A stretch of DNA of 64,000 bases from Minutocellus sp. GHC0000111 (GCA_977018835.1 OZ361256.1:2356001-2420000), one strand, 5' to 3'. Positions 1 to 22,883 are shown, numbered from the stretch's first letter. Made by a program: numbers and translations. Notes: generated from the letters alone by a model not told the origin.

Positions 1-1175
1 GGTAATGGCCGCCGCCAATCAGCAGCAAGTGGCCCCTCAAGTCTGAGCAACCCTTTATCATCCACCGCTTACATTTGTCACATTGATGATGACACGTTCT
101 CCTATCGACAACCCAGAGAACACACGCACAAGCATGAATTAAATTATGTAATGCTTCGTGATAACAGCATGTACATAAAAATAGGTGGTCTGGACGACGG
201 TTGTTAACCCCCACAAACTTATTTCCTTATTGTTAATAGTAAAAAATAATAAATATAGTTCGAGCGCACCATGTCCTCCATGTCAATGCTCTTGCTAATG
301 CTGCAATGGCATCTGCGCATGTAACAGTGGCAAGGATTGAAGACGACAAAGAAATGCCCGCACAGAGAAGAAGAGAACCATGCCAGGAGGAGCCAGCCAG
401 TCAACCAGCCACAGACTTAATCTAGCAGCTACCTTTGAAGGCTTCATGCAGGCCAACAATCCCAATGCTTGGAGAGACCACGACCTGCACTTCAGTAAAT
501 CTACATGAGCTGACTCCTCCTACCCCCCATCCTCACCCCATCTTGTGTAACGACTGCAACCGTGCGATTCTTGTTTTTTTATGTTTTGTTGACATTCGTC
601 CTTCCTGATGATGCAAGTGCGGCTGCCTGCCTACATAGATTTGGTTCTAACTTTTCACTATGACAGATAGATGTAAGCTGTACTTAATAGGACGACACTA
701 CCCCCTACCACCACTTTCATGGGGCTAGCTACTAGAGAAGAAGAACAGTCTCTCTACCGGCCTCAGGTTGAGGTTGTTTTTATGCCGCTCCTGTTGCTGC
801 TTTGCCCCAAGTAACCCGGACTTTTTCCCGAGAGCGTGCTCGCGGCCTCTCGCATTTGTTTTCTTCAATAAGCCCAAATGGTGCAGAGTTCTGCATGCTC
901 TCAACCATACTTGCGATCGATCCGTCGCTCCAGTCAGGGATCTACTCTGCATATAGTCTTACAACTGTATCTACAATTATGTCGCATTACGTCGATCCGT
1001 TCGCGGGTTGTGTGCAGGCGAAACTCTGCACTAAGACCCTACGCCTGGTTTTCGAGCAATGTGCCAGCCCCCAGTTCCTGCCCTCCTCCCTGCTTGCATT
1101 TGTCATCAGACGAGGTCGGTATCCCACTCTCGTTCACTAGCATCACGCCGGTGCCAACACAACACGAGCGACACG

Positions 1176-2237
1176 TCAGTAAACAATACCTAACAAATTG
1201 GTAAGATCAGGATGTCTGGTGGTCCGGCCCACGTGAGGAGAAGAAACCAGATCGACCCCGTGGTCATCCTCTACCCAGCCATCGGGGTTGACATCCTCAT
1301 CACGGAGCCCCCAGCGATGATACAAAAAATGGCCAGGATCAGTCTCCGGGGACCTCGAACATTGAAGACCTGTAAAATTAGCCACGCACGTGTTCCCTCG
1401 GAGACCCCTGTTATATGAAAGTCGGCTGCATCTTCCAAATTTCTCTCGTCCCTCTGTTCGCGTAGCCTCCAACCGAGACTGGCGCACACGAAGAGCGACC
1501 TCATAAGCAGCCTTCGTAATCATACCAGTGCGTACCCCCAATCTTACTAACGCGGCATTTTCGCGGTCGAGTGTTCTGTCGTAGCAGCCTAGAGCCACGG
1601 CAATAAGCAAATGACGGAACGATGACCACAGGCGATCCTGATCAAATTCCATGCACCCAAGATGGAAGTGCGCACCTCCATCTGCACAACCCAGTAATAT
1701 CGCTTCTTTGAAATATGTCTCGGCCCTTTTGAAATTGGGATGCAGCCCATGCTTGCCGATATAAAATGCTTCAGCAAGAAGGAAGATTCCCTCCGCACAT
1801 CCGAGCTGGTGTAAGCGAAACAAGTGACGAACGACAGTATGATCAGACAGTTCACCCGAGCGCACTTCATGCAAAATGACATTAACATCCTTCTTTTCCA
1901 GCCGGGCTTTCAAAAACTGTTCTATAACCCCAATGCAGTCGGAACTCGACTGCCTACAAAAAGGGCAAGACGAGCCTCTCGTTCGTGTGGTAATGTCCAA
2001 GTAGCAACCCCCGCACATGATCTGGCCGCAACAAGGACTAAGGACGCACTGCTCGGGCCTGGTTGGCAACGATTCGAAGCATATTGAACAGCACGCGGGC
2101 AGCGAAGGAAGTTTATGTAGGCGAGCATCATAACGGATATATGACCGGATCGACGATTCAGTCATTAATCTAGTTCGTGTACGACTCGATAGCTTTAGCA
2201 TCTTAGCTGGAAGAATCGGATGTGGGAAATTTTGCAA
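1176..2237 (-). CDS. RING-finger + Sel1-like repeat protein
   Basis: CSICFESLP...PCCGQIMCGGC...CPFCR is a RING-type Cys pattern. It is followed by Sel1-like helices (LAEAFYIGKHGL...KRAETYFKEAILLG, AHFHLGCME). The true start may be the internal Met of MLKLSS. Confidence 0.8.
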   Translation of the reverse strand: MQNFPHPILPAKMLKLSSRTRTRLMTESSIRSYIRYDARLHKLPSLPACCSICFESLPTRPEQCVLSPCCGQIMCGGCYLDITTRTRGSSCPFCRQSSSDCIGVIEQFLKARLEKKDVNVILHEVRSGELSDHTVVRHLFRLHQLGCAEGIFLLAEAFYIGKHGLHPNFKRAETYFKEAILLGCADGGAHFHLGCMEFDQDRLWSSFRHLLIAVALGCYDRTLDRENAALVRLGVRTGMITKAAYEVALRVRQSRLEATRTEGREKFGRCSRLSYNRGLRGNTCVANFTGLQCSRSPETDPGHFLYHRWGLRDEDVNPDGWVEDDHGVDLVSSPHVGRTTRHPDLTNLLGIVY

Positions 2238-2320
2238 TATAGGGCGACAAGAAAATACCAGATAATCCGATAATGCAATAACAAATGCCTTAATTTCAAA
2301 TTTATGGAATGGACTTGGCT

Positions 2321-4157
2321 CTAAACTCCAGAAATAAGGTTAAACAGAGACGAAGATAATTCCGAATCAATGTCGGATATGTCCGCAGGTACATAGGGAG
2401 GTAGCCCCGGTACCAAGTTTGATATCGCCTTCCGAAGATCACGCCAATCATCACGGATCCTTTTATCATCATATTTGATAATATCGACTTGATTCATCGC
2501 GTGTGCGAAATTAGTAACCGAATGTCTCGCCAGATCTCTCCGCCTCGATTCCTCTTCTAGGGAATTCGTTAGATCGCGATCGGCTGTAACCAACGCGGCC
2601 ATAATCTCATCCATCTCATCAACAATCTTGATCACAGTATCATTGAACTTGCGCTTGGAAGCTTCTTCTCGCGCCGTGACCTGATGGTCCGCCGGTGGCA
2701 TGCCATCATCACCGTCGCTGTCATCACTCGACTCATCCGATGCATCCGCATCGGACGACACTCCTGCTGGATCATATGGTGCCCCCGAGGGGACCCCAGT
2801 GACGGTGTACGAGTTCAGATCGAGATACCCTTGCCCAGAACGCAAATGTTCCGCTCGGTCCTTTAGCCTTTCGCATGCACATCTCAATGAACGACCTTGT
2901 AAAGCAGTCGGCAGTACCGAGCTAACCACGGCCGACATATATTGCCCGATGAAGGAAAGAGAGTGCTGGATAGCCACTATCTCCATCCCAGCATGCAGCA
3001 AGGTGCAAAGATCGGCCCCTCGAATGCAGGTGGCGCCTTGAGAAAGTGAATCTGATCTCGTGGCCTCGATGTTTTCGCCAAGCATGTCTAAATTGTTCGG
3101 GAGGAAAGTATTCAAGTGGAACTTCAATCGATCAACCCCGGTAAGAAACCCAACATCTCTCTGCGGCAAAGTGATAAGCAAGACGCCGAACATTGACAAG
3201 AATCGGTAAGATTGGAATGAGTAAGCACGTAAAGCATCGACGCAAATAGTACAGCACCAAGTCACAGATACGCACGCCGTCCATCGCCAGCATCCTCCAC
3301 ATAGCAATCTGAACAGGAATAGGGTAGTCAGAAACGTTATGTAGGCCATTCACACCGTGATTGTAACACAAAACGGCATCCCATTCGTCGAAATCGCTTA
3401 TCGCACGCTGCAACTCGGATTGCTGTGCCACCGTCAATGCGTCCGTACGGGGAAACGTTTTGCAAGCAACAACACCCTCCATCAGGTTCAAAATATCAAA
3501 TACGTCACTGGACGCGGGTGCTTGTTTCATATCATTGAAGTAGTTGCACACGACATGGCTCGCCGCCCACTCGGAATGCACCATCGACAGTCTAGCGGCT
3601 AGTTCCCAGACACGGATAGCATTGCGGAATGATAAAAGTTGATTCCGACCACTGGACTCACTGAAGAGCCCATCGAATTGTGACAGGATGGCACCGTTTG
3701 ACATCTTCCCACGGGACTCCACAGCAACAACCTCTATCGCAATAGTTCTGTCGCATAGTTGCAAGAGCCAGTCTAAACCGAAAAAGGCTGCCCACGGCGC
3801 CACCTTTTCGGCGATTTCGGCAGTGAAATTTTTTCCCAGACTTGTTCTGGGATGGACAGCATCGAAAAACGCACGAAGCGAGTCGCTTGAATGAGCCTCC
3901 AATCGAATTGTTAGCACATCACTTCTATCCTTTCCAGTGCAATCAGGTGACAACGCCGTATGGACCACGCCCCCTTCCCCGCCAGTTATCTCAATCAAAA
4001 AACCCGAATAGAACATCTGTTCGAAATGGCCCTGATTATCTGACACGACTCTTACCATCATGCGCTCATCCCACGAGCTGTTCGAGTGAGAGACGTCAGT
4101 CGCGTCTCGCTTCTTCGCTCGCTTCTGTGATTTGTAAGCACCAGCATCCATGTGCAC
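2321..4157 (-). CDS. BTB/POZ-like domain protein with acidic/coiled-coil C-terminus (spliced; paralog 1)
   Basis: ORFs 3132-4157 and 2321-3349 join in frame through a GTGCGT...GCAG intron at 3161-3275 (..AMDG|RDVGFL..). BTB-like signature: SLRAFFDAVHP...AAFFGLDWLLQLCD. Colinear similarity to 9561-11451. Confidence 0.65.
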
Positions 4158-4318
4158 TCGCTCCCAGACAAAAAAAGTAAAGTATCAAGTAAGATTATCG
4201 GCTGGTAGAATGAGATCCTTCAATATCCCGGTATTCGATTTGTAGTTGTACCGCAGAGCAACTTATGACCAGAGAGGGAGCGTCAGCGCGTCAGCGCCGT
4301 CGAGGCGAACGAGCTGAG

Positions 4319-4378
4319 GAGTCGAAGAGTGAGTCGAATCGAGTGAGTCAGGAGGAGTCAATCGAGTGAGTCGACTCG
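4319..4378. repeat. Cluster of GAGTC / GAGTGAGTC motifs ending in palindrome GAGTCGACTC
   Basis: Five GAGTC copies plus one inverted copy in 60 bp, read directly. Confidence 0.8.
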
Positions 4379-4390
4379 TTTACGCCAGAT

Positions 4391-4535
4391 AAGACACCCG
4401 AATACCGCGTCCCTCTTTTCACTTTTCCCTTTGCGTTGTCAGAAAGGAATTTCAAAGACACCCGAATACAGCGTCCCTCTTTTTACTTTTCCCCTTGCGT
4501 TGTCAGAAAGGAATTTCGAAGACACCCGAATACAG
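4391..4535. repeat. 64-bp tandem repeat, about 2.3 copies
   Basis: AAGACACCCGAATAC starts at 4391, 4455 and 4519. The unit continues GCGTCCCTCTTTT...TTGCGTTGTCAGAAAGGAATTTC. Confidence 0.95.
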
Positions 4536-4581
4536 GGATGTCTTTGCTTGCTTGCTTGCTCGAACGCTCGAACGTCAATCA

Positions 4582-4684
4582 TACCTAGGCCTAGGTACGT
4601 GCTACGTAGTAGGCTACCTAGGCTAGGTACATGTACTACGTAGCTACTTAGTACGTAGCTAGGCCTAGCTACGTAGTAGTAGCC
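4582..4684. repeat. TA-rich palindrome patch (16-bp and 24-bp perfect palindromes)
   Basis: TACCTAGGCCTAGGTA at 4582-4597 and TACGTAGCTAGGCCTAGCTACGTA at 4652-4675, between divergent genes. Confidence 0.9.
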
Positions 4685-4863
4685 CTGACGAGAAGGCAAA
4701 GAGCAAGGAGCAATGAGCGAACGCTTCGGCTACTGCCAGCCAGCTAGCCAGTATCGCGCGCCGACAACTCCAAGCACCCGACATCACATGTACCACAATC
4801 CGAAGCGCTCCATCATCTCCATATTAAACTCGTCACAACAAGCACCACGATCTGGTATTGATC

Positions 4864-6944
4864 ATGCCAAAAGAAATGGAAAGCCGTCGAGGGAAACGGC
4901 CGATAGCAGACGATCCCGACAAAAGGCAGCAGGTTCAGTTGCAGGAGAAACGCGGTAAGCAGCTGGATCAATTGCAGAAGCAACGAAAACAGAAACGCGG
5001 CAAGCAGAGCATAAAGGCCAAACGAGGTGGCGGGAAGAGTGTGTTCCCATGCAGGCTGCAGTATCACCTCCACCCGATGGCCGCCGCGTTGAGCAAGAAC
5101 GATAAGCGTCTCCAAAAGTTAGTAGACCAAGGAGTCATCCCGAAAAAACTACCAGTGTTTTGCATGAATCTCCCCGCGAACGACGTGGTAGTAGAGGCAG
5201 ACCTGTTCATCGAAAATGCGCTCAAAGCGTGCGGCACGATGGAGGGATCCCTGGAACGATGTAGGGCAATCGTCGCCGCAATCTCATCTCGACAGCAAGA
5301 GATTTATGGCGCGGTTTTCACGGCTAATGCTCCAGATCTAAAGAGGTACATCAGCAACAGGGATGATCTACACATCCCTAGCGGCGTCGATTGCAGAATG
5401 TCGAGAATGCGAGTAATCATCGAAAACGAGCAGGCCCAGGAACTCAAGAACGCAATAATCGAAAAAAGAACCGCCGATGAAATGCCCAGGGAAGAGGGAT
5501 GGCTATATCTCTTCATTCGGGAAATCGACCAACCACACAAAAAAGGAACTCTCAGCTCTGTAGTATATAAGGGCTGGGGACGCCTGCGATTTGGTAAGTG
5601 CAAGACACCTGCTTGGAATGAGTGTCGTGCTGACATCATTAATCGTCCTAACCCTTCCGTTTCTTGATGTTTGTTCCCCCTACACCCCGATTATCAGGCA
5701 AAGGATGGAGTCCCTATAGCGACGGGGACTGGAAGACTAGATTTCCAAAATCTGATCCAAGCGAGTTTTATTGGGATGGCAACGTGTTCATGATGACCAG
5801 GGCCAAGGAAAGCGAGCTACGAGAGGGGAACAAACTCCCACCTCAGCCGGAGTCAGGCGAGCCATGTAGCTCCAGCTCGAATGACAGCAGCTCTGGAACC
5901 GGTTCATCCCGCACGATCGAACGTGGCGCAGTCTCCGATGCCGATAGTAACATGACATCTGATCACGATGATGACAGAAAACGACTAGCAACAGCGGCCC
6001 ATCCACAAGACGATCCGGTCAACAAAAAGACACCTACACGTTCTGCCGGAGCCCGTATTGAGCCTGCTCCCAGGAAAACATTCCTGGGGGTAGCAGGCAA
6101 ACCAAACAGGCCTGCGGCCTCAGGTTCCGTCCCCGATCGAGACAACCTGCCCTCCGATGCAAAAGATGCATCTAACGAATCCACGAAAACGGCGAAGTCC
6201 GATGACCAATTCAAACCAATTCCCCACGACCAGTTTCGATCCGTTGACAGCGAATTTGATAAGAGAATGGGCGGGCTAGGACAGGTCCTAATGTCACTCA
6301 GCAGCAGAGACTTTGCTGCTGTTGATCCCGCTGTTGCCAACCAGGATGATGACATATCCTCCCTATCAAACAATTACAACACAACCAAAACAGATCTTGG
6401 AGTGGCAACGAAAGTAGCGTGCTGTAAACAACGGCAACTAGCAAACGATTCAACAAGTATCGGTGAAAGCGCAACTACCGAGTCACCACCATCCGAGGAG
6501 TTGGAAACCAAAAAGCCTACATGTACCAACACCACTCCCACAGATGTTGGAACCGACAACAAGCTCGCATCGCCGGCTGCTGATCTACCACATAAGCCGC
6601 CTGGTGAACAGCCCCAAGCTTCCGATGTCACCAACCTCCCTTTGTCGGCCACGAATCCACCATCTGTCGAGGATCGGCATCAAACTCGCAACAACAGCGT
6701 CGGCATGAACACGAGACCCGGTAAAATGGCTCGGTATTCCCGCAGAAAGTCGTCGAGCGAACTGGATTCCAGCTCGGATGTAGGCAGTTACGCGTCAGGG
6801 TATGCACCGGACGAAGAATGCACTCCCACCCGGGCAAATATAATGCGCTTAAGAGCAACAAAAGTGTCACGCCATAGTAGGAACAAAGGTAGCAAGAAAG
6901 CCAAGGCCCTAAAATTTAGGTCGGGGCGCCGTCACATACCATGA
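4864..6944 (+). CDS. Hypothetical protein, basic N-terminus and long low-complexity C-terminus (spliced)
   Basis: ORFs 4858-5667 and 5664-6944 join through a phase-1 intron GTAAGT...TCAG at 5594-5697 with a CTAAC branch point (RLRFG|KGWSP). Confidence 0.65.
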
Positions 6945-7157
6945 AATGGTTGGAGAATGAATGAGATAGATATATTATACTTAGGAGCAGTTCATATACG
7001 CGGTAATGGTGTACATATATCACTATTTACACACACGATAACGTGCACGCATCTATCGATCATACGCCATGAAGCAACCAGGGAGACAATTCAAATGATC
7101 ACAACAAAATATATATGTGTATCCGTGGAAAGTAATCCAAAAGTGTTGGACAGTTCA

Positions 7158-8237
7158 CTATGAGATTCCACGCAATCCACCCAGGACATGAAGAGGGCTG
7201 ATTGAATCAATCTTGTCGTCTCCGTAGCATAGGGGGCGCCAATTCAGTTGATCCTGATCCGGGGTCCGCCTCACAAGCGTACCGTACATGATACTCAGTC
7301 GCACAGTCGACAGACCAATACATTCGCCATTCGGAAGAAGATCGACAGGGAATTGAATCGACACATCTACAGGCCGTTGGCCAAGAATAACCCTGATTTT
7401 CATGCCTAAATCAGATTGCTCCAGCTCTAACCCACGTGACTCAATTCTGGTAGGACCTCCGTCCTCTGATACGTTTGATGAAAACATCACAACCGAGCTG
7501 ACACCGTTTCTCTTGTAGCCCGAGGACGCCTCATCTCGGACAATAGCAAGATCACCAGGGGATAACACATACCGGACCTTATTAGACGAAATCACAACAA
7601 TATCAGTTCCGCGCACTAGACGAAGACCAACCCGAAGCCCCCTATGCTCACCATGACCATCAAGCCCAATACACGGTCTTACACATGTACATGTCTGACT
7701 CAGGTGACAGCTTGCCTTACCAATGTTGATAGGAGCGCTAAGAGGATAGAGCGCCGATCTGTATTCGAGCATTCCTCCCTCAAATGCCAACCGCTCACCA
7801 AGAACCGCCTCGCCATCAACGCTTACGTCCATGTGGAATGTCAACTTGTCCACACCAACCGGGACAGGAGGAAGTGGAGGAATCGTCGCATGTCTGCTGG
7901 TAAGTCGATCGGAACCATATAACCGACAACAATTACGGATCCCCCCAAAGGATGAAAGAATTTCATCGTCATCGAGGAGCCGCGAGGTAGGCCAATTCAA
8001 TTTGCAAAGTTCGGACCAAACTTCCTCTGAAACACGACAAGAAGTACCAGCCTGATCCACGCGGCCAACATCCCTCACACTTAGCCAGCCATTCGCAACT
8101 AAATCAACCAGGACACCGGCCAACGTAGGCTCGTGTCCATCCCGATGATTAGACTCGGCAACAATGGCGGCATTTGCAAGACGACAGCGTTTATTAGGAC
8201 GACCACCCGAAATTCGCCTCTCTTGTGAACTCATCAT
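7158..8237 (-). CDS. F-box-like protein
   Basis: The 361-codon ORF has N-terminal LVDLVANGWLSVRDVGRV...SEEVWSELCKLNWP, which resembles an F-box plus its typical 'W..LC...WP' tail. Confidence 0.5.
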   Translation of the reverse strand: MMSSQERRISGGRPNKRCRLANAAIVAESNHRDGHEPTLAGVLVDLVANGWLSVRDVGRVDQAGTSCRVSEEVWSELCKLNWPTSRLLDDDEILSSFGGIRNCCRLYGSDRLTSRHATIPPLPPVPVGVDKLTFHMDVSVDGEAVLGERLAFEGGMLEYRSALYPLSAPINIGKASCHLSQTCTCVRPCIGLDGHGEHRGLRVGLRLVRGTDIVVISSNKVRYVLSPGDLAIVRDEASSGYKRNGVSSVVMFSSNVSEDGGPTRIESRGLELEQSDLGMKIRVILGQRPVDVSIQFPVDLLPNGECIGLSTVRLSIMYGTLVRRTPDQDQLNWRPLCYGDDKIDSISPLHVLGGLRGIS

Positions 8238-8445
8238 AATCAAAACAGAGGAAGTCGAGAAGCAGATACACTAACTGCCACCGCAAAAGCCAAGCCCACT
8301 GAAATACCCGAACCACGGCAACTCCAAACCGTAGACAGCTCGTTCGCTCACAAAGCGGCGAAAGGGACCGGGAGACCACCTTTATCCCGGCGTTCATGCC
8401 GGTTAGTTCGGCTCGTGCGGCATATTCTGCTTTGCAGTGCATCAA

Positions 8446-9451
8446 AATTCCCGGCTGGGGGCTGGCGAGTTTCCATTTCTATGAAATAGTTTCCATCTTA
8501 CAATGCGAAGTTCATGTTTTTGATCGGCTCAAGGTTGGACACCTTGACAACTCCTGTGACAGTATATCTTGTGTGGATTGATTGTAGGTAGCTCACTTCC
8601 TAAAGTAAGCTGAGTTGAGTACCATCTTTTCTCTCTCTGTGCAAGAGTCTCCGCTTCAGTGACGAGCTCTTCGAGGTCCACATCTTTTGGATCGTCGATG
8701 AACACCTGCTGTAACTGGCGTGAGAACACAACACAGATCGACATGTGGCAAGTTGGCAGCGATGCAGGTAGCTACTCAATTGTAAAAATAAAAAAGAATG
8801 GGTAAACATACATGCATGTCCCCACCTCCACCTCCACCTCCACCACGAGATCTAGGTCTAGCTACAGGCTGCACACTCCGATGGCGCAAGGCGATGTCTG
8901 TGTGCTAAACCACAAACAAAAGATGGCAGTGTCTACAAAGTGCAGATTGTTCTACAAGTCAGGAGTGTCGTTTCCAACTACACCACCACGACCACCAGCA
9001 AATCTGTGGATTGTTGACACCGATACTTACTCCCACAACGACACCTACACAAACCGATTGCCACCCTGCACCTGGCAAATTGTAGGCGATTTAGTCCATC
9101 CTACGTTAAGATCGAGGTAGAGGCCAACCAGACCTAGGGGAAACTAGCCTACCTTTCAACATGCACTTCAAGACAGATCCAGGAACAACATTTTGTAAAA
9201 AAATATAATCGTTAATAAAACAAATGCATTGAAGAACATAAGAAGAATTTTCTTGTGGTCTGTCCGTCCCCAAAGATGGAATTTTAGCGGAAGACGGCCA
9301 GATAGAATGAGACCGGAATGGCAATCTGTCACAGGGTCACACAATTGTGTCAGATCTGCAGCGACGATCGAAGGCCTACATGTAGATCGAGTAAAATATA
9401 TTATGCTCGTCAAATTCTGCTATTTTTAGACCCTCTCGTGCGATACCCCCC
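8446..9451. mobile_element. Possible degenerate transposon remnant
   Basis: Appears CpG-poor and holds only broken ORF fragments (FIDDPKDVDLEELVTEAETL). It interrupts an otherwise gene-dense block. Termini not established. Confidence 0.3.
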
Positions 9452-9560
9452 TACACATTGGCCGTACATGGGACTGTCGTTCGAAGTCCCTACACTACTA
9501 CTTGCTCTCCACGAGATCTACGCAAAGGGTAGGCCCCATCTACACCTCCACCTCCACCAC

Positions 9561-11451
9561 TCAGTGTGTCTCTGCCTCTTGTATCCCTTTATCACCGAGA
9601 TATTTTAGTAGTTTCACAAACACAGCTTTCAACTTTTTACCTCCGATGTTCAAATTACCGACGTGCCTTTCAAATTCTTTACCTAGCAGGCCATCGCCGT
9701 CGTCATTGCCCCGGCATGCCAGCAAAAGCTCCTCATTGGCCTCTATAAGTGTCTCGATAATCACATCCAGCCCTTGTGTTACTCGGGTAACAGTCCGCCG
9801 AAATCTCTCGCGCCTCGCCCGTTTATCAGGGTCATGACGACTGCAAGCACTGCTCAGGCTGGAGTCGTCATCGAATAACACAATTGGATTTCCTACGCTT
9901 CCCAGTGGTGCCCGTAGGATACCAGTGTCATCGAAAGGACGTTTCCTCCGCCGTATCGAGCCAATCGCATCGTCTCCGTCATTGGAATCGGAAATTCCGT
10001 CCGATGGCAACATCACAACTCTGTATTTATTCAACGTGATATATCCATCACCAGACGACAATGCTCTTGTCCGTTGCGCCAACTGACGATACGCAAGACT
10101 CAAGGGATGGCATCGTACGGCGAGTGGCAATTCCTCATCAACAACATCTGGCAGTCGCTCGACGAGAAAATTGATCGACCGGCGCATGGCATCCACCTCC
10201 ATGCCAGCGTGGAATAAGAGGACAGTTTCGAACGACGCAGGGTCAATCGATATGAAGGTCTCGTCAGAGTAATCCTCGACGAGGCAAGTGTGCCCAGACG
10301 GCAGGAAGGTATTAAGAAGATATCTCAGCCGAACGACCGACGGATGTGAACCGGTGTCGTCCAAAAACCACCAGGGATACCAAACCATTAGAATGACCGC
10401 GAAAAGTAGCGCATATGTCAACACACTTATTTACGAACCACCCAACAAGCAATCAAGGGCCATCAAAATAACGAGATAATCGCGGACTCACAACTTTAGC
10501 TTCCATCATTTCTTGCATTGCCAACTGCACCTTACAACTGTACTTTGAAACATAGCGACCATTATCAACCCCCATATTAAAGCAACGAATAGCATCCCAT
10601 ACATCCTCCGACCGCTCAGTAAGAGTCGTCTGTAGCCATTGCCGATCCTCGTCAGTCAATGAGCCTAGCGCCTTTCCTTCAGAACGGAAGTTACTATACG
10701 CTGAATCTGCTTCCACAAATAAAAATAGGAGGTCACGAACGTCATCAACAGAGGGGGCTTGAGTCATACACCGAAAGAAATCACAAACCACATGAACTGC
10801 TGTCAATTTCGAGATCGGAAGCGAGCATCTATTAGCCAGTCGCCAGATGCAGAGACATTCACGAAAATATCCGAGCCCAGCAGCCCCGCTATCCTTGCTG
10901 AATAAGCAGCTAAACGACACACCCTCAAGTCGACACCGCGCAGCGCTTTCAACCATTGATTCGGCAACAATCTCGTCACACTTGTCTCTCAACCAACCAG
11001 TATCAAAGTAATCAGCCAACACCACGACCCCTTTTGCCTCAGACACGCTCAGGGGTTTGTCGAATATCGTCTCAGCGTGCGTGGCTCGCCACCATGCATC
11101 AACTGCATCGACCGGGAACTGATCAAGGCATATCTCATTGCTTCGTCTGAACTCACTATTAGGAGACAATGCCTTGGCAACCCAGCCCTCCGCCCCGCTT
11201 GTATTATTAATAAGCGCTAGCCTGTGTTCCCTGTTTTCAAAGTGCCCACCATTGTCACACTTTATTGTAACATAATCGTTAGTCAAATACTCGAAGTACC
11301 CAGGAGGCGTGCCACACAAGGGCCTTCTGCCTATGTCGGGATCCCGGACATCCGTATTCAGAAAAATAGCGCAAATTATAACTGTTAATACGGAAAGCAT
11401 TTTTTTATGACAATCAATGACAAGCGTAACGTAGAATAATACACCGAACAA
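9561..11451 (-). CDS. BTB/POZ-like domain protein (paralog 2; intron acceptor non-canonical, possibly pseudogene)
   Basis: Shares DNxGHFE, ALSP, WL..CD..IA, LFS..SG, HVVC.FF..M.QAP, WDA..C.N.GV, LNTFLP, HAGME and SG.GY..LN.Y with 2321-4157. The intron sits at the homologous position 10362-10491 with a GTGAGT donor but ends in TG. Confidence 0.6.
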
Positions 11452-11617
11452 ACATGCCTATTTGTACTCATATCTACTCTAGCTAGTACGTAGCTATGTA
11501 CGTCGAACGAGAACCATGACACCGAACTCAGAACAGAAGCATCACGTCCTGATTCATCTCAAGGATATCAGCAAACCGAGATACCACACACCGATGGTAG
11601 CTAGGCCAACATCGGTG

Positions 11618-12415
11618 TCATTCGGGTATCTCATTATCTCCAGACCCCGAAACTATGCCTTTGACATAAATCCCACGATGAACCTCATGAGACTCAAACC
11701 TCAACGACTCTAGCCACGGTCTTATCCAGTCAAGGTCCTTTATTAGAAATCCACACGCTTCCGTCACTTTAATTACGTCCGTTGGCGGATTCAATCCGGC
11801 TCCGTCCCCAGCCAATCTCACGACACGAATTCCATCCCCATCGCAACCAGTAGAAGGAACACTAACGCCAACGCCATCACAACCAACGCCTACATCTTCC
11901 TCTGTATCAGTTCGTATAACAATACGTTTTTTAGGTCGACAGGATTCAGCTCTACCACCGGTCTCATCCTCACTATCTTCGAACACCCCGTGCCCACCCG
12001 AATACCCGGGGGTGCCGCTACTTCCTCCATTGGTAGCTGCAAAATAAGACAATGATTTGCTCTCCCCGGCCTCGGTAATGTCGAATAATGATTCCGAGTC
12101 ATCAGATTCACTGCGTCTGGCGCGTAATCTTGCCAGTCTTCTTCTACTCATCAGCATTCTCCTGCTCGACAATCTCCTTCTGCTTACACGAATTTTCTTC
12201 GCGTGAATTTTCCCCGGCAAAGATAAATGACGACTGAATATCGATACATAGGGCCGACTGTCCTTCACGATAAATCCTCCGAGTGTGCTGTCATCGCTTG
12301 AATCGTGTAAATCGTCACCCCCTTCCTCCGAGCTATTCTGATGACCACTCTCAACGGCCTCTTCGTCGACATATTGGCTCGAACGGTCCCACTGGATTGC
12401 CTGCATGTATGCCAC
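11618..12415 (-). CDS. Hypothetical protein (acidic and Arg-rich low complexity)
   Basis: 265-codon ORF; no recognisable domain. Confidence 0.4.
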   Translation of the reverse strand: MAYMQAIQWDRSSQYVDEEAVESGHQNSSEEGGDDLHDSSDDSTLGGFIVKDSRPYVSIFSRHLSLPGKIHAKKIRVSRRRLSSRRMLMSRRRLARLRARRSESDDSESLFDITEAGESKSLSYFAATNGGSSGTPGYSGGHGVFEDSEDETGGRAESCRPKKRIVIRTDTEEDVGVGCDGVGVSVPSTGCDGDGIRVVRLAGDGAGLNPPTDVIKVTEACGFLIKDLDWIRPWLESLRFESHEVHRGIYVKGIVSGSGDNEIPE

Positions 12416-12918: not shown

Positions 12919-13896
12919 CTACTCAGTCCGACGAGAGTCAGTATCAGGATATTTGTATCCAACTGCCCTAATAAACTGATTGTCTAAGTCGCAGCCGGGG
13001 TACATCCTCGACAGCATCTCCATAATCGTGGTATCCAGATAAAAAGTGTCTAAGGGCTCATCATAACGAATTTCAAGAGTATGACTACGCAAAGCCTCCC
13101 AGACAAAATAGTCAGGATCTTTGATGGCGCCGTACATCCCCTGCCTACCCCCCTCGCCCACAGTCTCTTTTGTATTCTCCTGAAGGACACTTAAATAGAC
13201 ATCCCGGAAAAGCTTAGACCGCAGGAAATCAGACAACCGACTCCCAATGCTGCTTATCTCTTCCTTGACATCAGCGCCGTCTTTGATGTACACAAACCCA
13301 GCCATGACACGAGTCTCGTAGCGACTACCCTTGTAAACGCGGGTCAGAGGAATATTTGGCCCCTGGGCAACCTCTCGCATCGAATACTCACGAAGATTTG
13401 TGAAGAACTCAGGCCACCCCATCCCAGGAATCATAGCACGAACACTATGAATAGCATCGATGAGATGGGAAGACTTAATACACCAGCAGTCCTGATTGAG
13501 AATCAGTCTCTGAAATCGGATAGTCACGACAACAGCACGCTGGAGGTAACCTTCCCCACTGGCCATCGGGCAAACCGACACTCTCAAGGTGTAACCATCA
13601 GCTGCTTTAACAACGGATTCAACAGTTGCCCGGATAGCCTCAGGCTTCACGCCAAAGGCATCAAATACACCCAATCCTCCCTGTTTCTTATCAGCCAACC
13701 CGCTCTCCAAATCAACCGCCCCTTTCCCATTGGCCGATTTGGCACAGGGAGCCAAACCGCGGTCCACGCCGCCATTATCCTTTTTGACCTTCTTGCTTTC
13801 TCTCTCGTCTCCGGAAGACGGATCAACACCCGGGATGCCATTATTCGTTACGGCATCCGATTTGCCTCGGCTCTTATCAAATCGCTTGGATTTCAT
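12919..13896 (-). CDS. Hypothetical protein
   Basis: 325-codon ATG-initiated ORF with a globular-looking C-terminal two thirds; family not recognised. Confidence 0.6.
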   Translation of the reverse strand: MKSKRFDKSRGKSDAVTNNGIPGVDPSSGDERESKKVKKDNGGVDRGLAPCAKSANGKGAVDLESGLADKKQGGLGVFDAFGVKPEAIRATVESVVKAADGYTLRVSVCPMASGEGYLQRAVVVTIRFQRLILNQDCWCIKSSHLIDAIHSVRAMIPGMGWPEFFTNLREYSMREVAQGPNIPLTRVYKGSRYETRVMAGFVYIKDGADVKEEISSIGSRLSDFLRSKLFRDVYLSVLQENTKETVGEGGRQGMYGAIKDPDYFVWEALRSHTLEIRYDEPLDTFYLDTTIMEMLSRMYPGCDLDNQFIRAVGYKYPDTDSRRTE

Positions 13897-14116
13897 GATT
13901 ATAGTCGTATGTCCACCGAACTTAATATTATGACTACATAAATCCCACCCCCCACACCTCTCTCCCTAAGCGGTGATGCACGACCCCGGGCTAGACCGGC
14001 ACCTCGATTCAATGTACCTAGCTAGTCTGATTGCGGAGCCTAACGCCATAAAAAAAACAAGCGGGATACTCGTATAGCAATCACAACCAAAACCCAACAA
14101 ACACACCTCCAACAAA

Positions 14117-15750
14117 ATGGACATGTACCTCCCTCAGTGCGTTCATCTATGTATTGCGTCTTATATAAGCAGCCCAGCTGATCTCTACCATTACACCCGA
14201 TATTTGTATAACGCAAGACGCTGCACGACCCCTCAACAAGATGGATTCTGCGGATCTGTGCTGCATCTCCGGTCAGATGCAACAAACCCTCGAAGACAAT
14301 ATTGCGATAATCGCAATGCATGGAGATGGATACGCTCGCTGAGACCAGAGCTCGGAAACAGAACAAAACAAGCCATCTGTAGAAGGCTCGAATTCATGGG
14401 TCTCGGTTTTCTCCCCCAGGCTCTTATCGAATGGAATGATCTCGACGGTAATGAGAACCCTGAATCACCCGCCGGGGCAAATGTATATCTTGCTGGGTCG
14501 GTACCACTGTGTGCCGTGACAGAAATGTCCCTTGAGCAGGTAAGCGACGCAGATCTATACGTAAGAAGTAAGAGCTTCAAGAAAGTAAAAGCTGTGTTGC
14601 AAAAGGAGGGCTTCATTCTCCAATACAAATCAACCGGCGCACATTACACAAACCTGCTAAAGTGGTGGGTATACAGGTATATCCGCCCTCCGGTAACTCC
14701 GATAATAACAGAGACCGTCAAGCCAGAATTGACGTAATCAAGCTCGATAAAACCAGCCTAGATGTCAATGAGCGTATAAGAGATCACCAACTAGCATCGA
14801 GCTTCGACATGTCAGGATGTGCGGTTGCCTTTGATGGTAAGACAACCGTTGTACCAGCCCCCGAACAAACATTTGCGCGCAGACTGAAACTTCGTCAACC
14901 TTTTCCGTATATTTTTCGAAAACTACTGGTTATGCCACACCGATACGACCCAATCCGATGTGAGGAGCTAATCAGCCTCTGTTTACCCCCACCCTTACTC
15001 GAACGTAGAACCAACAACCAACCCAAACGACCATTCCGTAACGAAGAAAATCGGGCGATCTACGTCACCTTGGCCCTATTACACGTCAGGAAAGTGTTGG
15101 AACGGATTTTCAAATACGAGCAAAGAGGTTTTACAATCTCCAAATGTCATGCATACCACGCTCTTGTGCTGCTAGATATCTCCACCAGGATAATTGAGTT
15201 CCGGCGGAGCAACATTTTCCGACGGCACGCATGTACGATCCAAAGAACAGCGTTCACGAGGCAAATACGCGAAGACTCCCGCTTCCTCCGCTCTACTGCT
15301 ATAGATCTCGTTGCGATAATGCGCCTCGATGGACACCAACGGAGAGCACACGAGTTCAACTTACTCCATGATGGGTCCACTGGATCAGAAGCCACTACTG
15401 CCAACCGGCTACATCGCTTTTATGTCCTCATTCGATCGTTATCCCGCCTTAGAAGATATCTCGAATCAATCGAGAAAGCCGATCTTCTCCCTCCGAGATT
15501 AGTTAGATGGCATCGTCTGGAGTTCATACAAAGTCTCGATCACTTGCCACCGTCAGTCAAAAAAGAGATGAAAGGGCAAATTGACTGGCGATGGACGTCA
15601 TCTGATCTAAATGCAAGTGACTGGCCGCCAAACCAACAACACCAGAACCGCCATTTAAAACGAATGCTGGCCGAGCTGGGACCGATAATGGGCGACGAAA
15701 GAGGAAATGTGTCGGATCACACGAGATCAAAGAGGCAACGAAACAATTGA
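14117..15750 (+). pseudogene. Pol-beta superfamily nucleotidyltransferase-like protein, one frameshift
   Basis: YLAGS...SDADLYV (hG[GS]...DxD) lies in ORF 14117-14737. The third acidic motif RIDVI, plus FDMSGCAVAFDG and RIFKYEQRGF, lie in ORF 14662-15750. The frame changes at about 14680-14730. Confidence 0.65.
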
Positions 15751-16278
15751 ATTGTGGCACGTGAATTTAAGGCGCGTTAGTTACAACAGATAATCATCGA
15801 CTAATTGCCGCCCTTCGATGCATCCAGACCCAGCCAGCAGGGAAAGATACGTTGTACATGTAACATCCGGTATCGTGTATATCATGCAAATCCCAAAAAG
15901 GTAGACAACGAAAAAGTCCAAATTGACCTGAGCAACAACCGCCAACCTCAGGAGTCGATCGATCAGGCACTCCACGACCCTAGTATTCGTAAAAATAGAA
16001 GAGTAAAAAGTTGAAAACATACTCAATACTTAACCAGACCTGCAGACTATACGGCAGCTAGCTAGATAGGCCCCTCTAGCTAGTCACACATGTATAGGGC
16101 AGCAGCAAATAAATTGGCTACTGCGTAGCGTACGTACAGCTACATACCTAGCTCTAGTCTAGGTACGGCGACGGCACACCACATAAATCAATAAACCGAG
16201 ATATAAAATTGCTATGTTGGATGTCTTCATTTATCCCCCACCAACCACCAATACAGCCATACCACCATTCTGCCTGTC

Positions 16279-17793
16279 ATGATCTCAACACGTCGCGACT
16301 TCAGACGCAACCCTTCATGCCTTTATCCGAACAAATACCCAATAAATGAGATATGGTTCGGCGGTCCTCTCTATGATTTCAAAAACTTCACACTCCCTGA
16401 AGAGATTTTCGGAAGCGATGACCCGGCGTCGGAGCTATGCTACTGGCATGAGATCTGCCCGCTCTATTACGAATGCAATTCCGTCTGGCGTGATTTCCAT
16501 TGGCCATGCAATGACAAAGACCGCCAATTCTGCATTGCATTCCGCAATAGCTTTCTTGATGCTAATCCCAGCCTCTCTATCCGAGATCTATGTACCCATA
16601 GAGCACCTATGTGTGACGTCGAACCCGACGTTTTGAAATGCTTACAGAAACTACCAGTTGTTAATTATCCTTGGGATCCTGCATACGCCACTCCAATGTT
16701 GGCCATGGCGCATCTGACATACGTACCACTACGCCACGTTGCTCGCCATCCGCGATATCAAAAGGTGTCTCAAGAGCAAATTACAAACACCGTTCGTCCT
16801 TTTGAACCTTTCGAACAGTTACCAGACCTTCTTCGCATCGTCCATAGCCGGTCTCATTACGCGATGGACAAATACCGTGAAGAGATTCTCTGCTTCCCCT
16901 TGCCGCACATGACATCGGAAGAGACACAAGAACGCCATCGCTATCTTTCCGATCTGTACGAAGCAGCGTTGACTCACTTGTACGATAATCCACGTTGGAG
17001 AGCGTGGGCGTCTCAATTCCCAAGAGAACTCGCATGGCGCAAGCCTTCATCTGCATTCCCGGCTCGTCTCCTGTCCCCGTCTATTCCAGCACAGTATCGA
17101 GTGACGCTCCGATATCACAAGTGTGAGACCCAGAAGGAGAAGGTCACAAACAAAACAACCAACCCCGAAGATAGCATCACCTCCAACAACCACCTGTACT
17201 ATCTCGATGGTGCTAAGCGCTGGTATGAAAAACCCCAGCCCAGCAAAAAATACGTCATGTATGCCGGGGAGCCATTTGGCCCTATATTTTGTGACTTCTT
17301 ACAAAGCATATCAGGTGACGCAGACGTCGGCCCCGACATTGACCCAAATAAACCAGACGACTATCTGTATCTTCTATCTACACCCGACGACGATATTGGG
17401 CTAGCCCGAGAAGCATTATCGACATTACGGACCTTCGGGTATGAGCTTCGCTGGCCGTTACTTGGACCCCAAGACAATCCTCTCAACCGGACTCTGCCCC
17501 GAGTACAAGGCGGGCCAAAATGTCCGTATCCACCGAACCAGCACGATGGTGGACCTCCTGTAACCCCATTCTCAACTCGTATAACTTCAATCGACGCACC
17601 GGATACGATCATCAGACGCGGAACTTCCCCTGCCATCCCTCACGAGTTTACTGTCATCGTGATTAAACGAATCGAAGCCGACGTCATTGCTCTCATGTTT
17701 ACTCATTGTCCCATGCGGATTCTCGACGTAAAAAGTCTTACCGGGTCTACATCAGAATCAGACCCAGCCCAGCAAATAGCCACTCAGCTCTAA
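16279..17793 (+). CDS. Hypothetical protein
   Basis: 504-codon ATG-initiated ORF, rich in Pro/Trp/Tyr; no recognised domain. Confidence 0.6.
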   Translation: MISTRRDFRRNPSCLYPNKYPINEIWFGGPLYDFKNFTLPEEIFGSDDPASELCYWHEICPLYYECNSVWRDFHWPCNDKDRQFCIAFRNSFLDANPSLSIRDLCTHRAPMCDVEPDVLKCLQKLPVVNYPWDPAYATPMLAMAHLTYVPLRHVARHPRYQKVSQEQITNTVRPFEPFEQLPDLLRIVHSRSHYAMDKYREEILCFPLPHMTSEETQERHRYLSDLYEAALTHLYDNPRWRAWASQFPRELAWRKPSSAFPARLLSPSIPAQYRVTLRYHKCETQKEKVTNKTTNPEDSITSNNHLYYLDGAKRWYEKPQPSKKYVMYAGEPFGPIFCDFLQSISGDADVGPDIDPNKPDDYLYLLSTPDDDIGLAREALSTLRTFGYELRWPLLGPQDNPLNRTLPRVQGGPKCPYPPNQHDGGPPVTPFSTRITSIDAPDTIIRRGTSPAIPHEFTVIVIKRIEADVIALMFTHCPMRILDVKSLTGSTSESDPAQQIATQL

Positions 17794-18165
17794 CCGCCCC
17801 CCTATTCCCATAGGCGTTTAAGTCCCGACAAAACGAGCCAAATTATATACTATCTATATGTAACTCTATAATAATTAAGCATCACACAGCGCATCTTTCC
17901 CACATTGTCCCGTCACATCCTGGTGAATCCACCGAACCTACATCCACCTCGCTTGTGCGAGTCACCTGCCTTGTAACACGTACTAGCATGCGTATGAACG
18001 ACACCACGGCGAATGAGGCTATTGAAACCACTCTATTCTAACTTAACTTCTACTTCTTTCTCGCTGCAAACATCACTGTTTTTTTCCCTCTGGCATCTTG
18101 ATTTTCTTTACATCTGGCATGATACAGCATTTTATGTTCATAGAGTGCCTCAGCCACGATTCTAT

Positions 18166-21100
18166 CTATCGCCTGAACAAGTCTCGGTGACCTTGCACAT
18201 ATGAAATCACCTCTGTTGGATCCCAACTATCCCCCGTCACACCATACCCGCTGACGTAGGCGTCTACGAACGGAGATGGCCGCAAAGATGTGATGTAATC
18301 GAACGACCTCAGTCCAGCCGATCCAGGACCAAGTAATCTAATGCCATCGCGTTCTCTTACTCTGCTCATTGCAACAAGGATAGATGTATGTCCCATCTGG
18401 CAGGCCGAAACTGGTCTCTCACAAAGGGCAATAATAATCTTCTCGATTGTCCGTCCTTCTAATAAATTAACAATGAAGCACATCGATTAGACCAAATATC
18501 ATTCAATGAAAGTTAAAAAGTTGAAGCCCCCCTGGCAACTCACCTGCTTTGTGAATCGTTACCGCAAACCCCAACTCACAACGAATGCGATCCCGGACCT
18601 GAACCTTCGACGGAGGATACCCCGCATCGCGATCCCCGCGAACCGCGCGACTGTGCCACTCAGAAAAACGTGGTTGGCAGGTGATAGGTACTATTACCCG
18701 AGACGCAAGCCCAGTCTGTCTATCACGCTCCGAGACACGAGGCAATCCACCCCCATTCCCTCCAACAGAACGTATAACCCGTTCAAACTCCCGCACGCAA
18801 CAGTGACCGCCAAGTGGAACCTCAACGTTCACTGATCTCGGAGGGGTAATAGTCAAGACGGTCCCAGGAGGGCTGCTAGCCACTTGCTGTCTTACTATCG
18901 CATCCTCCTCAGGCGAGCTCATAGAGACGGAATGATAAACAACAGACGAGCCGTTTGCCAAATTGAATCTGGCGATGATTAAAAATCAAAGAGGGAGGAA
19001 AAGAACGCAACATCAGAATAAATTATTAGAAAATATCAAAGACATACGTACAACATGCACATGACATAGGCGAACTGCAAAATAAAATACAAAAACTGTG
19101 AGAACTCACGAAGGACAAAAATTAGCAGTTATGAACCCAGGCGCCCCAGCAACAAAATACTCGAAAAAGCTCGGATCGTCGAGCGCGCGGGCCCGTCACT
19201 ATCGAGAGGTCTGCCCCTCCACTGCTTCATATCCAAACGCCATCGCAGCACACAGGTCCCTCGTAGCCTGGCAAACGAAACAGCCCGGGAATGCACAAGC
19301 GCCAGCCTCTCTTGATTAGTGGATACCAAAACCGGAGCGGACAACCAGTCAAGATTACGATCAAGGTCGGCAGGCTGTAACACCTTATAACGCATTAAAT
19401 CCCTAACTCTGATTGCCTCGCCGCGCCACATCCGCATCACGAATTCTGTATGGTCAAGGTCCGTAGACCGATGTTGTGTGGTAAGAGGCATCCAAACAAA
19501 AGCCTTGATCAAAGCAAGCCCTCGCCTCATCGAGGACACAGGGCTATACCTATTTCTCAGCACCGCCCAAGTTCTTCTCGTAAATAGCGAGTTGTTGCCT
19601 TCAGTAGTGGCATCGTACACCGCCATCTCCACTGCCCCTTGGCAGATCGAGATGGCTTTGACCGGAGGAAGTTGCCTGAGATCCCCAAACTTAAAGAAAA
19701 CGACATCACGAATAAGCAAATAGATACAGCGAATGAGACGAAGATAACTCAAAAGGGAAACACTACATGCACTTACCAGCAAGATAGATACACCACCGAA
19801 AGGTGCATCCAGACTTGTAGCTTGTCTCAGCCTAGAGTCAATCACTGAAATCAGCTGGGGAGTCAACATTGACATCTCATCCACCAACAAACAACACATG
19901 CTATCAACACAAATACTATCTCTAAATTCCTGGAGGCGGGCCGAGCTCAACGGACGAATCCGAATTTTACATGCACGGCAGTCCTCCTCTCCGTCGTCTG
20001 CTTTCTCGGCAAAAGGAATCTGAAATAAAGAACAAAGCGTCTGTCCTCCAATATGGGATGCAGCTACACCGGAATAGGCTGTCGACACAAGGGCTCCAAA
20101 CCCACATATGTTACACATGCGCTTAATCAACTGCACCAAATATGACTTGCCAGTGCCCGGTCCCCCCGTGACAAGAAGACACGTTGGGTGTGCTGTCGCA
20201 CCGCCACCAGTGTTCCCAACAAATCTAGAATGCAAGAAGCGTAAAACCGCCAACTGATCTCGCGGCGGTTCTCGTCCTCCTTCCAGGATAAAATCTCTAA
20301 TAAACTCTCCAAAACTCCCATTGTTCACTCTCTGATTGGTCATGGTCAACGGCAAGCCTCGTACTCTGTGTGCACCCGAAGTCAACTGCTCAGTCAATGC
20401 CTCCGCTGCTCCATCAGGCAGCGTCGTCACCAGCGATGCAGTGGTCCTGGACCCGGCGCTATTCTGACAGGAAAGTCGAGAGACATCATCGATCTGATGA
20501 GATTGATGATGCACATAGTCGCACATTTTCCATGCATTACGAATTTGAGCAGAAGTTAGATTCTCCTCCTCCCATCGTAATAGATAACCCTTGAGCATCT
20601 CGGAGAACGACGCACCATCGTCTCTAGCAGCGCCTCGGGTAGACCTCCATTTTGTTCTATGTCGAGCACGATAATTGGACAAAGCATCCCTCATCACACT
20701 TGTACACGAATCACGATAAATAGTTCTCATGATAGAAGCATATCGAAATCGGCCAAGAGCATCACTACCCCGCCGAAGATCAGCTATATAAGAAAGGAAA
20801 GCCTGCCAGTCATAACAAAGGCTTACACTCGTCCTAGACCCGGGTCTAAAACACACAAGGTAATAGCGGGCAAAACTATCAGCACGAATAATCCAAGAAT
20901 CTGCGTCCTTGTCAGCTGCGCTAGGCCTTGGTCCCGGCAACATAGGAGCTCTCCCATACATTATCGGCGTACGCTGCTTCGAGCGGATTATTTGCTCATG
21001 CGACTCAAACAAAGGGCAGTCCCGATCAAACTCAAAACGGCGGGTGTATGGCCGTCCCGCTCCCTCGTGACACCTCTTCTTACTCTTGCGTCTGACATCA

Positions 21101-22687
21101 ATCAGAGATGCATATTCGATTCTACTTAAATCCGCCAACGCAAACCCCCTATACTGATATTGCCATGACTGGGTGACCAAAACAGACCGTCCGTCACGTC
21201 CGGTCACTATGTCCCCTGGGCCAAACTGGTCTACCGACACAAAAGGCAGTGGATCCACGTCCATGCCTTCCGCCAGATCAGCGTGACTCGGCAGATCATC
21301 CATACGCTCCCCGGAACCAAGGAAATCTACGAATCTGATGGCTGCATCCCCCCTGAATGGTACAAAGGATTCTGACGTAACGGCTACCTTAAAACCCAAC
21401 AAAGCCGATGCAGCCTGGACATCACTAACCTCCATGATGACGTTGAGCTTATTCAGAAGCCGAGTCAAGAAATGCTGCACAGTTCGACTAATGCTCTCCT
21501 CTGCGGTCTCATCAGCACGATGAAATAAACTAGGGTAGCGTATTACATCTGAAAAAGATTGATGGGCCACGCTAAGATCGTGCACCAGCTGCCTCTTGTT
21601 CTTATTCAGATACGGCACGAGGTACAGGCTCGCCAACCGGGATTCTGTTGAACCACCTAGAGGGACTACGGCAGAATGGCATCGTATTGCAGCCGTGAGC
21701 ACTGGATTGTACGGCACCACCCACTCATTTCGAGTAGGCAACCTCGTCCTAACCCGGTCATACAGCGCTAAAAGGCGATCCGGACTTAAGGCCCTCAATT
21801 GCGCCAACTGAGTAAATGTAAGAGACATTCCAGAGGACTCCATAAGCTCCTGTACACACAAATGCGGATTCGCCTTAAAGTCAAGAGTGGGTGGTAAATC
21901 CCGCTGCAATCGCCGCTTCAACTCCCATCGGATCAGCCTTCTCTCAGGAGGTGCCAACGGCCAATATAGTTCACTGCCTGCACAAGGCGCCTCCACATCT
22001 GACACTGGAGTAACAGATGCATCGTTCCCAGTCACAAGTTGAAACGGTTTCGTGCCGCATTGTTGTTCCCATGGCGCATCAAATCTACAACCGTCTTCAC
22101 CATGTCTGCCTTTGTGACAGGTGTCGCGGTGACGGTGTATGCCATTGCAACAAATGCACTCCTCCACATCTCCTCGAAAGCCGGCAGCATCATACAAAGG
22201 AGATCGCGCTACACCCAACGCGGGCCACACACACCCAGACTCGTCTGCTAGGCCTTCCAGCCTAGCTTCGCTTCTTACCAAATCCCGCACATGCATCCAC
22301 CTAGGTAACTCGGCAACGTACATCTTGTCCATCGCATCTGCCAAAACGCTGCGAGCCGTCGAATGATGAGCGCCACCTTCTAGCATGCGGGCAGTCAGAC
22401 CACCCCACAACAAAGCGTGAAAATGAAGAGAGCCGCGCCCCTGGGCCTCTACAACCCCAAAACACGCTCTACACCGACCAAATGCACCTTTAGGGCGCTC
22501 ACCGAAGTAGGTGGTCTTTCTATCGCAGCCCCTATCACTCGTCAAATATGAAAAATCAGTACAACCAACAAGGGCGCTCACAATGTCGCCTATCAGATCA
22601 CAAAAACCAACTGCCGCGGCAACGGGGTTCCGCTGGGCCGACCGCACACGACAGGCATGGGAACAGTCAATAGTAACAAGACCGCCC
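18166..22687 (-). pseudogene. Helitron RepHel transposase (HUH Rep + PIF1 helicase), 5'-truncated, 3 introns, 1 frameshift
   Basis: Rep motifs: NPVAAA, FGVVEAQGRGSLHFHALLW (HUH), HRHRDTCHK...CRF, YLVPYLNK (Y2). PIF1 motifs: TGGPGTGKS, AYSGVAA..IGGQT, VDEMSM, PFGG..FGDLRQLPPV, LTTQHR, LANGS, FAVTIHKAEGRTI, VAMSRVR. Introns at 19690-19776, 18969-19109 and 18459-18543. Frameshift near 19190. The frame stays open up to the LTR at 22688. Confidence 0.93.
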
Positions 22688-22883
22688 TGCTAAGAGGTCC
22701 TAAAGCTAAGCTAGATAGATATAGCTAGTAGAGGTTAATAGGACCTACGTAGATGAAAAATGGGCCATCGGAGATGTCGTTGGCCCATGGATCAACGGTC
22801 AGGAGAGGGCACTGAGTCAGTGGTCTGATCACCGTACGTACCGTACGTATGTATACGTACGTACGTATCCCACGGTGTCAACA
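22688..22883 (-). repeat. 3' LTR (196 bp)
   Basis: TGCTAAGAGG...GTGTCAACA; direct repeat of 28688-28885 with 6 substitutions and one 2-bp indel. Confidence 0.97.

Follow-up and report, generated by a model that had tools for sequence, protein, structure and literature searches.

A candidate giant Helitron-like element with nine accessory genes in the diatom Minutocellus

Results

Gene content of the block

A gene-dense block in a 64,000-nt stretch of the Minutocellus sp. GHC0000111 genome (GCA_977018835.1 OZ361256.1:2356001-2420000; hereafter the window) is probably one giant cargo-bearing element of the HLE2 class (Helentron/Helitron2), at least 24 kb long, with nine whole accessory genes, now truncated and immobilised. 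We put the probability of this reading at roughly 0.65. The surviving block measures 21.6 kb (Table 1). A preliminary description had reported RepHel and about nine compact genes, four of them orphans, and ORF lists, splice tests and Pfam bear this out: RepHel and the nine further genes give a gene span of 78% in 1176-22687, and four of the nine are orphans. None of the 13 cargo ORFs reached the Pfam cut-off, vs 10 of 17 host ORFs. The window was compared with contigs from five of 17 sequencing runs, X1, X4, X5, X7 and X8.

Table 1. Features of the block and its right-hand neighbour, in window coordinates
Feature	Position	Strand	Details
Putative giant HLE2 element, surviving part	1038..22687	-	left edge approximate; 5' end lost
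RING-finger-like gene, helical C-terminus	1176..2201	-	Pfam zf-C3HC4_3 E=0.0016, below cut-off
BTB-like gene A	2321..4151	-	2 exons, 571 aa, GT-AG intron 3275-3161
Orphan 1	4864..6944	+	2 exons, 658 aa, GT-AG intron 5594-5697
F-box-like gene (by eye only)	7158..8237	-	359 aa; no Pfam match
Non-coding spacer	8270..9560		short repeats common to other loci; raised depth and loose ends at 8463-8700, 9506-9561
BTB-like gene B	9561..11400	-	intron 10491-10362; 569 aa; absent from X7
Orphan 2	11618..12406	-	262 aa, acidic/low complexity; orthologue P0039 91.6%
Orphan 3	12919..13896	-	325 aa; orthologues P0035-P0037 about 95%
F-box-like nucleotidyltransferase-like gene	14117..15750	+	frameshifted in window and X1
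Orphan 4	16279..17793	+	504 aa, convergent with RepHel; homologue search returned own cluster only
RepHel, 5'-truncated	18166..22687	-	Pfam, motifs, splice model
High-copy Copia LTR retrotransposon cutting RepHel	22688..28885	-	Pfam, LTRs, run contigs

A strand bias common to cargo and RepHel

What ties the cargo to RepHel is a strand bias that both have in common, independent of gene orientation. At four-fold sites, G+T on the coding strand was 0.609 in minus-strand cargo (n=1171) vs 0.391 in plus-strand cargo (n=800; Fisher p=2e-21), while RepHel had 0.60 on its own sense strand. All 13 cargo ORF segments were G+T-rich on the RepHel strand whichever way the gene pointed, the eight minus-strand segments lying at 0.56-0.65 and the five plus-strand ones at 0.36-0.43 on their coding strand. 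The host genes right of 31 kb are ordinary and include fucoxanthin-chlorophyll proteins, which points to a diatom as the most likely host. Four-fold G+T in host ORFs (n=17) ranged from 0.19 to 0.50, none above 0.50, and their orientation effect (p=0.016 for all) fell to p=0.48 without three strongly biased genes. Bulk plus-strand A+C was 0.566 in 1038-22687, 0.494 in 481-1037 and 0.501 in 31059-64000, these 33 kb of host DNA showing no bias of this sort; the high-copy repeat at 1-480 had 0.573. The bulk bias is lower left of about 5800 (0.542 vs 0.573), and the four-fold-site bias is equal on either side of that point. The bias also alters the amino-acid composition of the block's proteins. 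Two database homologues, P0046 and P0002, have a composition typical of a G+T-rich strand, no more than an indirect hint that they might lie side by side.

Single-stranded DNA drifts to G+T through deamination. In the Helitron Helraiser, the plus strand is the one displaced and transposed (PMC5876387). As a control, we measured G+T inside and outside the elements of an unrelated family of marine HLE2s that has three different 3' flanks: 0.591 and 0.493 for L082, 0.585 and 0.534 for L050, and 0.589 and 0.578 for L041, where the flank stays biased past that element's end. A bias of at least 0.56 was found in 11 of 68 scored Helitron-like loci, six of the 11 coming from two related families; 12 of 80 loci had been left out, having either under 100 four-fold sites or no motif ORF. 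As an element marker, strand bias is informative in the loci that have it, but it is not universal.

The control family (L041, L043, L044, L050, L082 and L099) has a 2,900-aa RepHel fused to a Ulp1 protease, is at least 14 kb long, and carries extra upstream ORFs on both strands together with strong strand bias. A 280-bp stretch lies upstream in L041 and downstream in the related L099, and an NB-ARC plus WD40 gene (L041:15058-17046) directly behind that element is also G+T-biased.

RepHel and its class

RepHel fuses an HUH Rep domain (motif 2, Y2 motif) to a Pif1 helicase, with Pfam matches to PIF1 (2e-12) and Helitron_like_N (8e-6). Its catalytic motifs are intact, namely Rep motif 2, the two tyrosines of Y-x3-Y-x2-K and the Pif1 motifs; introns lie at 19776-19690 and 18543-18459, and a putative middle intron would end near 18969. 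Rep motif 2 reads EAQGRGSLHFH, with S and not L after RG, and S at this place marks HLE2 (PMC4067079). The closest full-length homologue, P0002 (48% identity), carries DUF6570 (E=1.4e-12), and the corresponding part upstream of Rep is lost in the window: the alignment begins at P0002 residue 890, so about 2.7 kb (about 890 N-terminal residues) is missing. Judged by sequence features, the S in motif 2 and the DUF6570 of P0002, RepHel belongs to HLE2. Pfam and motifs thus uphold the RepHel reported earlier at 18166-22687, though not as a whole gene, because Copia at 22688 cuts its 5' part. Endonuclease, RPA and OTU domains had no match in the surviving part of the element, and the tyrosine-recombinase captain that marks Starships had none in the block's ORFs, the element's 5' end being missing.

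Edges of the block and the lost 5' end

Two lines place the left edge near 1038-1100. Homology with X7 begins at 1038, where the leftmost X7 contig departs from the window, and the strand bias begins near 1.1 kb, so the two edges coincide at 1.0-1.1 kb. The element had earlier been drawn from 725, and we moved the edge because the CTAG with hairpin near 725-735 (CTAGT at 735) is at chance level (6 of 104 such sites in 1-22687, 8 of 82 in host DNA). With an HLE2-type RepHel, a CTAG end is not expected. The canonical Helitron class (HLE1) was rejected on the chance-level CTAGT at 735 and on motif 2, which has S where HLE1 has L. HLE2 elements have sub-terminal inverted repeats and a 3' stem-loop and insert at T/T sites; in the window a 6-bp hairpin lies at 1012-1031, just outside the X7 match, and no hairpin was found in 17790-18170. 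Termini, an empty site, a second insertion and a circle were not found in the window and run contigs, and no internal HLE-like end was recognised inside the block.

Around this edge, 1-680 is a degenerate, CpG-poor high-copy repeat with depth above 1500, and 772-960 is a fragment that looks coding on the minus strand and has diverged copies at other places in X1, X4, X5 and X7. Inside the block, the divergent promoter region at 4391-4690 holds a 64-bp tandem repeat and palindromic TAGCTA/TACGTA clusters; similar clusters also occur upstream of several cargo genes, in LTRs and in host DNA.

On the right, the LTRs of the Copia element (22688-22883 and 28688-28885) differ at seven positions. No target-site duplication was found around it; its two flanks do not match, the right one being another truncated ORF. 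The X7 contig matches the window to exactly 22687 and then continues for 852 nt unlike the LTR, so that RepHel is uninterrupted there by Copia. From the sequence of this junction, the missing duplication and unlike flanks point to either recombination between two Copia copies or a mis-join. Farther right, 28886-31058 (about 2.2 kb) is biased opposite to the block and contains a truncated Cys-rich zinc-finger-like ORF at 28886-29323; a 1.6-kb multi-copy insert at 29491-31084 is absent from another haplotype.

Relatives, haplotypes and copy state

X7, a wild relative of about 95% identity, spans 1038 to beyond 22687 in the same order at 92-95% identity, retaining the cargo and RepHel without Copia and without BTB-B. 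A single X7 contig (16747-19755) joins orphan 4 to the 3' part of RepHel. Divergence to X7 is 2-6% in host genes and 4-8% in the block, and the substitution counts, being unpolarised, give no mutation direction. The preliminary description had named two arrangements that would speak against it: cargo syntenic in relatives lacking RepHel, and RepHel copies ending just downstream of 18166. What we found is cargo syntenic with RepHel in X7, and an unbranched contig over 8630-22711 in both X1 and X4, which means that no near-identical copy ends after 18166 there. The remaining unbranched contigs cover 582-8520 in X1 and 115-8547 in X4. Neither run has a second copy or an empty-site branch at 1038, and the block is single-copy in both. 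For the earlier claim of one large rolling-circle element with cargo, the shared strand bias and the X7 order speak in favour, while termini, an empty site and mobility left no sign.

Read depth over the block is about half that of host DNA at 36-39 kb (94 vs 199-220 in X1; 124-130 vs 290 in X4), depth not being equal to copy number. We discarded half depth as element-specific evidence, since it runs on left of 1038 without a contig break. In X8, which mixes organisms, depth was 5-9 over the block and 49-56 over host DNA, a gap that may reflect presence or absence of the block. Separately, depth over 31125-35938 in X1 is about double that at 36-39 kb, and this host segment differs from the runs by 15 substitutions and 15 gaps, a possible segmental duplication.

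For each of five cargo genes, the longest contig bearing an orthologue measures 18,672 bp, and it is likely the same contig in all five cases. These orthologues are full length and 4.6-8.4% diverged, vs about 10% expected under neutrality at 5% DNA divergence, an expectation that uses X7's DNA divergence and is compared with orthologue clusters admitting only proteins at least 90% identical. The chance that all five would have no stop without selection is about 0.0007, as a product with the divergence borrowed from X7.

Cargo genes

Against the PDB, the RING-like gene matched RING E3 structures at E 0.026-0.86. Its Sel1 label, like the F-box label of the gene at 7158-8237, is a putative one; Pfam gave no match to Sel1 or F-box in these two genes. 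The F-box-like gene has an orthologue, P0030, at 94.7%. For BTB-A, whose orthologue P0025 is 92.6% identical, the language-model features of the Atlas led to BTB clusters at 0.90-0.93, with 22 of 30 matches being BTB and 149 of 256 features in common. A BTB/POZ fold had no Pfam match, and the structure model (pLDDT 46) had no Foldseek match, so that for both A and B the BTB assignment comes from Atlas features alone and is weak. The domain labels given earlier thus fared unevenly: RING stays below cut-off, BTB gains weak backing, and Sel1 and F-box lack a Pfam match.

BTB-B is a paralogue of BTB-A (32% identity, two exons each, matching intron position). The acceptor of its intron reads TG in the window but AG in X4. 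In X7 the gene is missing, with a joint at 8946-11530 where the module 8947-11529 is replaced. The BTB cargo gene was duplicated, and one copy varies between lineages. Orphan 1 had no meaningful family match in Pfam, PHROGs or NCBIfam, and the predicted fold of orphan 3 (pLDDT 33) was uninformative.

In X4, X5 and X7 the nucleotidyltransferase-like gene is a single ORF of about 544 aa; the window and X1 both lack 1 nt of it, which breaks the frame. An intron is ruled out by the intact ORF in those three runs and by homologues P0045 and P0046, which span both halves. Pfam NTP_transf_5 stayed below cut-off (E=1.7e-4), and the PDB gave no match. A search of 1.84 billion representatives gave eight relatives, of which two are full length, at about 40% identity. 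GS...DxD plus a third Asp is the Pol-beta-type nucleotidyltransferase motif, and these residues appear to be present, conserved in P0044-P0046. The Atlas leads were fungal F-box-like clusters (0.93-0.95) and a cluster of Nucleocytoviricota, or giant viruses, containing Gad2 (0.90). Gad2 is a predicted nucleotidyltransferase (bioRxiv 2023.05.01.538930).

Introns were modelled in three of the nine cargo genes (BTB-A, BTB-B and orphan 1), the other six having none, and in this haplotype disabling changes affect two of the cargo genes. The earlier statement that several have proper introns therefore holds for three genes, with the reservations that the BTB-B acceptor is TG in the window and that the nucleotidyltransferase gene is frameshifted, not spliced. 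At window positions 1562, 16294, 16597, 19586 and 21578, X1 and X4 both depart from the window sequence, and small differences from it also occur in the database proteins P0001 and P0024.

Searches for homologues

A metagenome scan with a two-sequence RepHel alignment found no relative, and one with a broader alignment found 80 distant loci. Cargo homologues beside RepHel in several loci, the check proposed at the outset, were sought by tblastn in 101 loci, all of them RepHel/Pif1 matches far more distant than P0002, and none matched at E<=0.01. Viral scans returned generic Pif1 matches (21 loci) and none for Rep or cargo; four cargo queries had no relative in IMG/VR, and prokaryote genomes had no match. 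Searches with the BTB exon and orphan 4, run with length and word limits, returned this lineage only, and PHROGs, NCBIfam and PADLOC found nothing meaningful on the block. Among the top-ranked papers of the open literature, none described a multi-gene diatom Helitron or strand bias as a Helitron marker; supplements (e.g., HELIANO tables) and figures may hold diatom cases.

Discussion

By analogy with its family, RepHel would nick the element's end and peel off its own sense strand. Deamination (C to T, A to G) of the displaced strand during repeated single-stranded phases could then make the entire unit rich in G+T on the RepHel strand, in whichever direction its genes point. Genes may have been captured by read-through beyond the 3' terminator, and recombination between two Copia copies would have removed the 5' half. 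For the anti-silencing or host-manipulation role proposed in the preliminary description, one hypothesis is that the putative RING, BTB-like and F-box-like products serve as ubiquitin-ligase adaptors and direct the breakdown of host silencing factors to the element's benefit; we regard it as rather unlikely.

Several results weigh against a single giant element: no terminus, empty site, second insertion or circle came to light, and the block is single-copy; the bias is seen in only 11 of 68 scored loci and extends into the flank of L041; the 2.2 kb right of Copia are biased the other way; and cargo homologues are missing from the 101 loci, all of them distant relatives. The disabling changes in two cargo genes and the BTB model without a Foldseek match also count on this side.

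The block could instead be an ordinary HLE2 of 7-8 kb, an old insertion in a hemizygous, repeat-rich island of lineage-specific host genes, with vertical synteny in X7 and a bias owed to local replication or repair. A single copy, no termini, half depth running beyond the proposed edge, and a divergence to X7 (4-8%) similar to that of host genes (2-6%) all fit this account. It has difficulty with the 33 kb of host DNA without bias (0.501), with a four-fold bias equal in RepHel and cargo and directed as expected for a displaced strand, and with the bias and homology edges meeting near 1.0-1.1 kb, and we think it improbable. We would give the same low weight to a composite origin, in which several HLE2 derivatives lie in one orientation, in tandem or nested, and each brought part of the cargo. 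Such a history would suit the BTB-B module (8947-11529), which is replaced in X7 and adjoins short repeats common to other loci, as well as the weaker bias left of about 5800 (0.542 vs 0.573) and BTB paralogues only 32% identical; against it, there is one RepHel only, the four-fold bias is the same either side of 5800, and no internal HLE-like end was seen.

A fragment of an endogenous giant virus or Polinton-like element invaded by a Helitron is far less probable still. Gene density (78% gene span), the many orphans and the 0.90 lead from the nucleotidyltransferase to the Gad2-containing cluster would agree with a viral origin. However, capsid, PolB and packaging ATPase had no match in Pfam, PHROGs or NCBIfam, in agreement with the preliminary description, three cargo genes have spliceosomal introns, the top Atlas matches are eukaryotic, and the four IMG/VR queries came back empty.

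One giant cargo-bearing HLE2, the reading that we prefer, resembles known HLE2 elements in the S of its Rep motif 2 and in the DUF6570 of its closest full-length homologue (PMC11417382, PMC4067079), and HLE2 is present in algae (PMC8226300, PMC9977147). It departs from them in its load of nine separate, complete genes, which lie downstream of RepHel on both strands and of which three have introns, where HLE2 as described in these sources has one or two extra domains or fragments (PMC11417382, PMC4067079). Protein-degradation domains are known from HLEs, namely OTU, UCH, Ulp1 and FBA_3 (PMC11417382). Helitron2-7_cRei of Chlamydomonas reinhardtii, 20.4 kb long, is described as autonomous and among actively inserting Helitrons (PMC9977147), which makes such a size feasible for an algal Helitron2; compared by size and not by gene content, the present element would be larger, at least 24 kb, and it is single-copy and truncated. 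Gene-capturing Helitrons of maize and fungi reach 39 kb with up to nine captured pieces, and full-length capture has been called exceptionally rare (PMC6431247). Unlike those fragments, the genes here are whole and conserved in relatives. Starships are large elements with accessory genes, mobilised by a tyrosine recombinase. The giant cargo DNA transposons KDZ, EnSpm and Sola of the brown alga Ectocarpus are likewise large, contain nested TEs and carry accessory genes whose function is unknown (PMC12477816); the present element has a rolling-circle RepHel, in contrast to the tyrosine recombinase or DDE enzymes of these systems.

Conclusions

More broadly, diatoms may host a lineage of giant rolling-circle elements that serve as Starship-like gene vehicles. 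Their virus-like payload, made up of ubiquitin-ligase adaptors and an F-box nucleotidyltransferase, would be stable and under selection and would have been copied along with RepHel for so long that the bias is imprinted on codons and amino acids; this bias would map such elements without termini. We hold this wider view tentatively, at somewhat less than even odds. The strand-bias test is cheap and applicable to any algal assembly. If one unit of at least 24 kb does carry nine whole, conserved genes, HLE2 elements would count as cargo vehicles in diatoms, some annotated lineage-specific RING, BTB and F-box genes would belong to transposons, and part of the orphan-rich hemizygous islands of diatoms would be explained.
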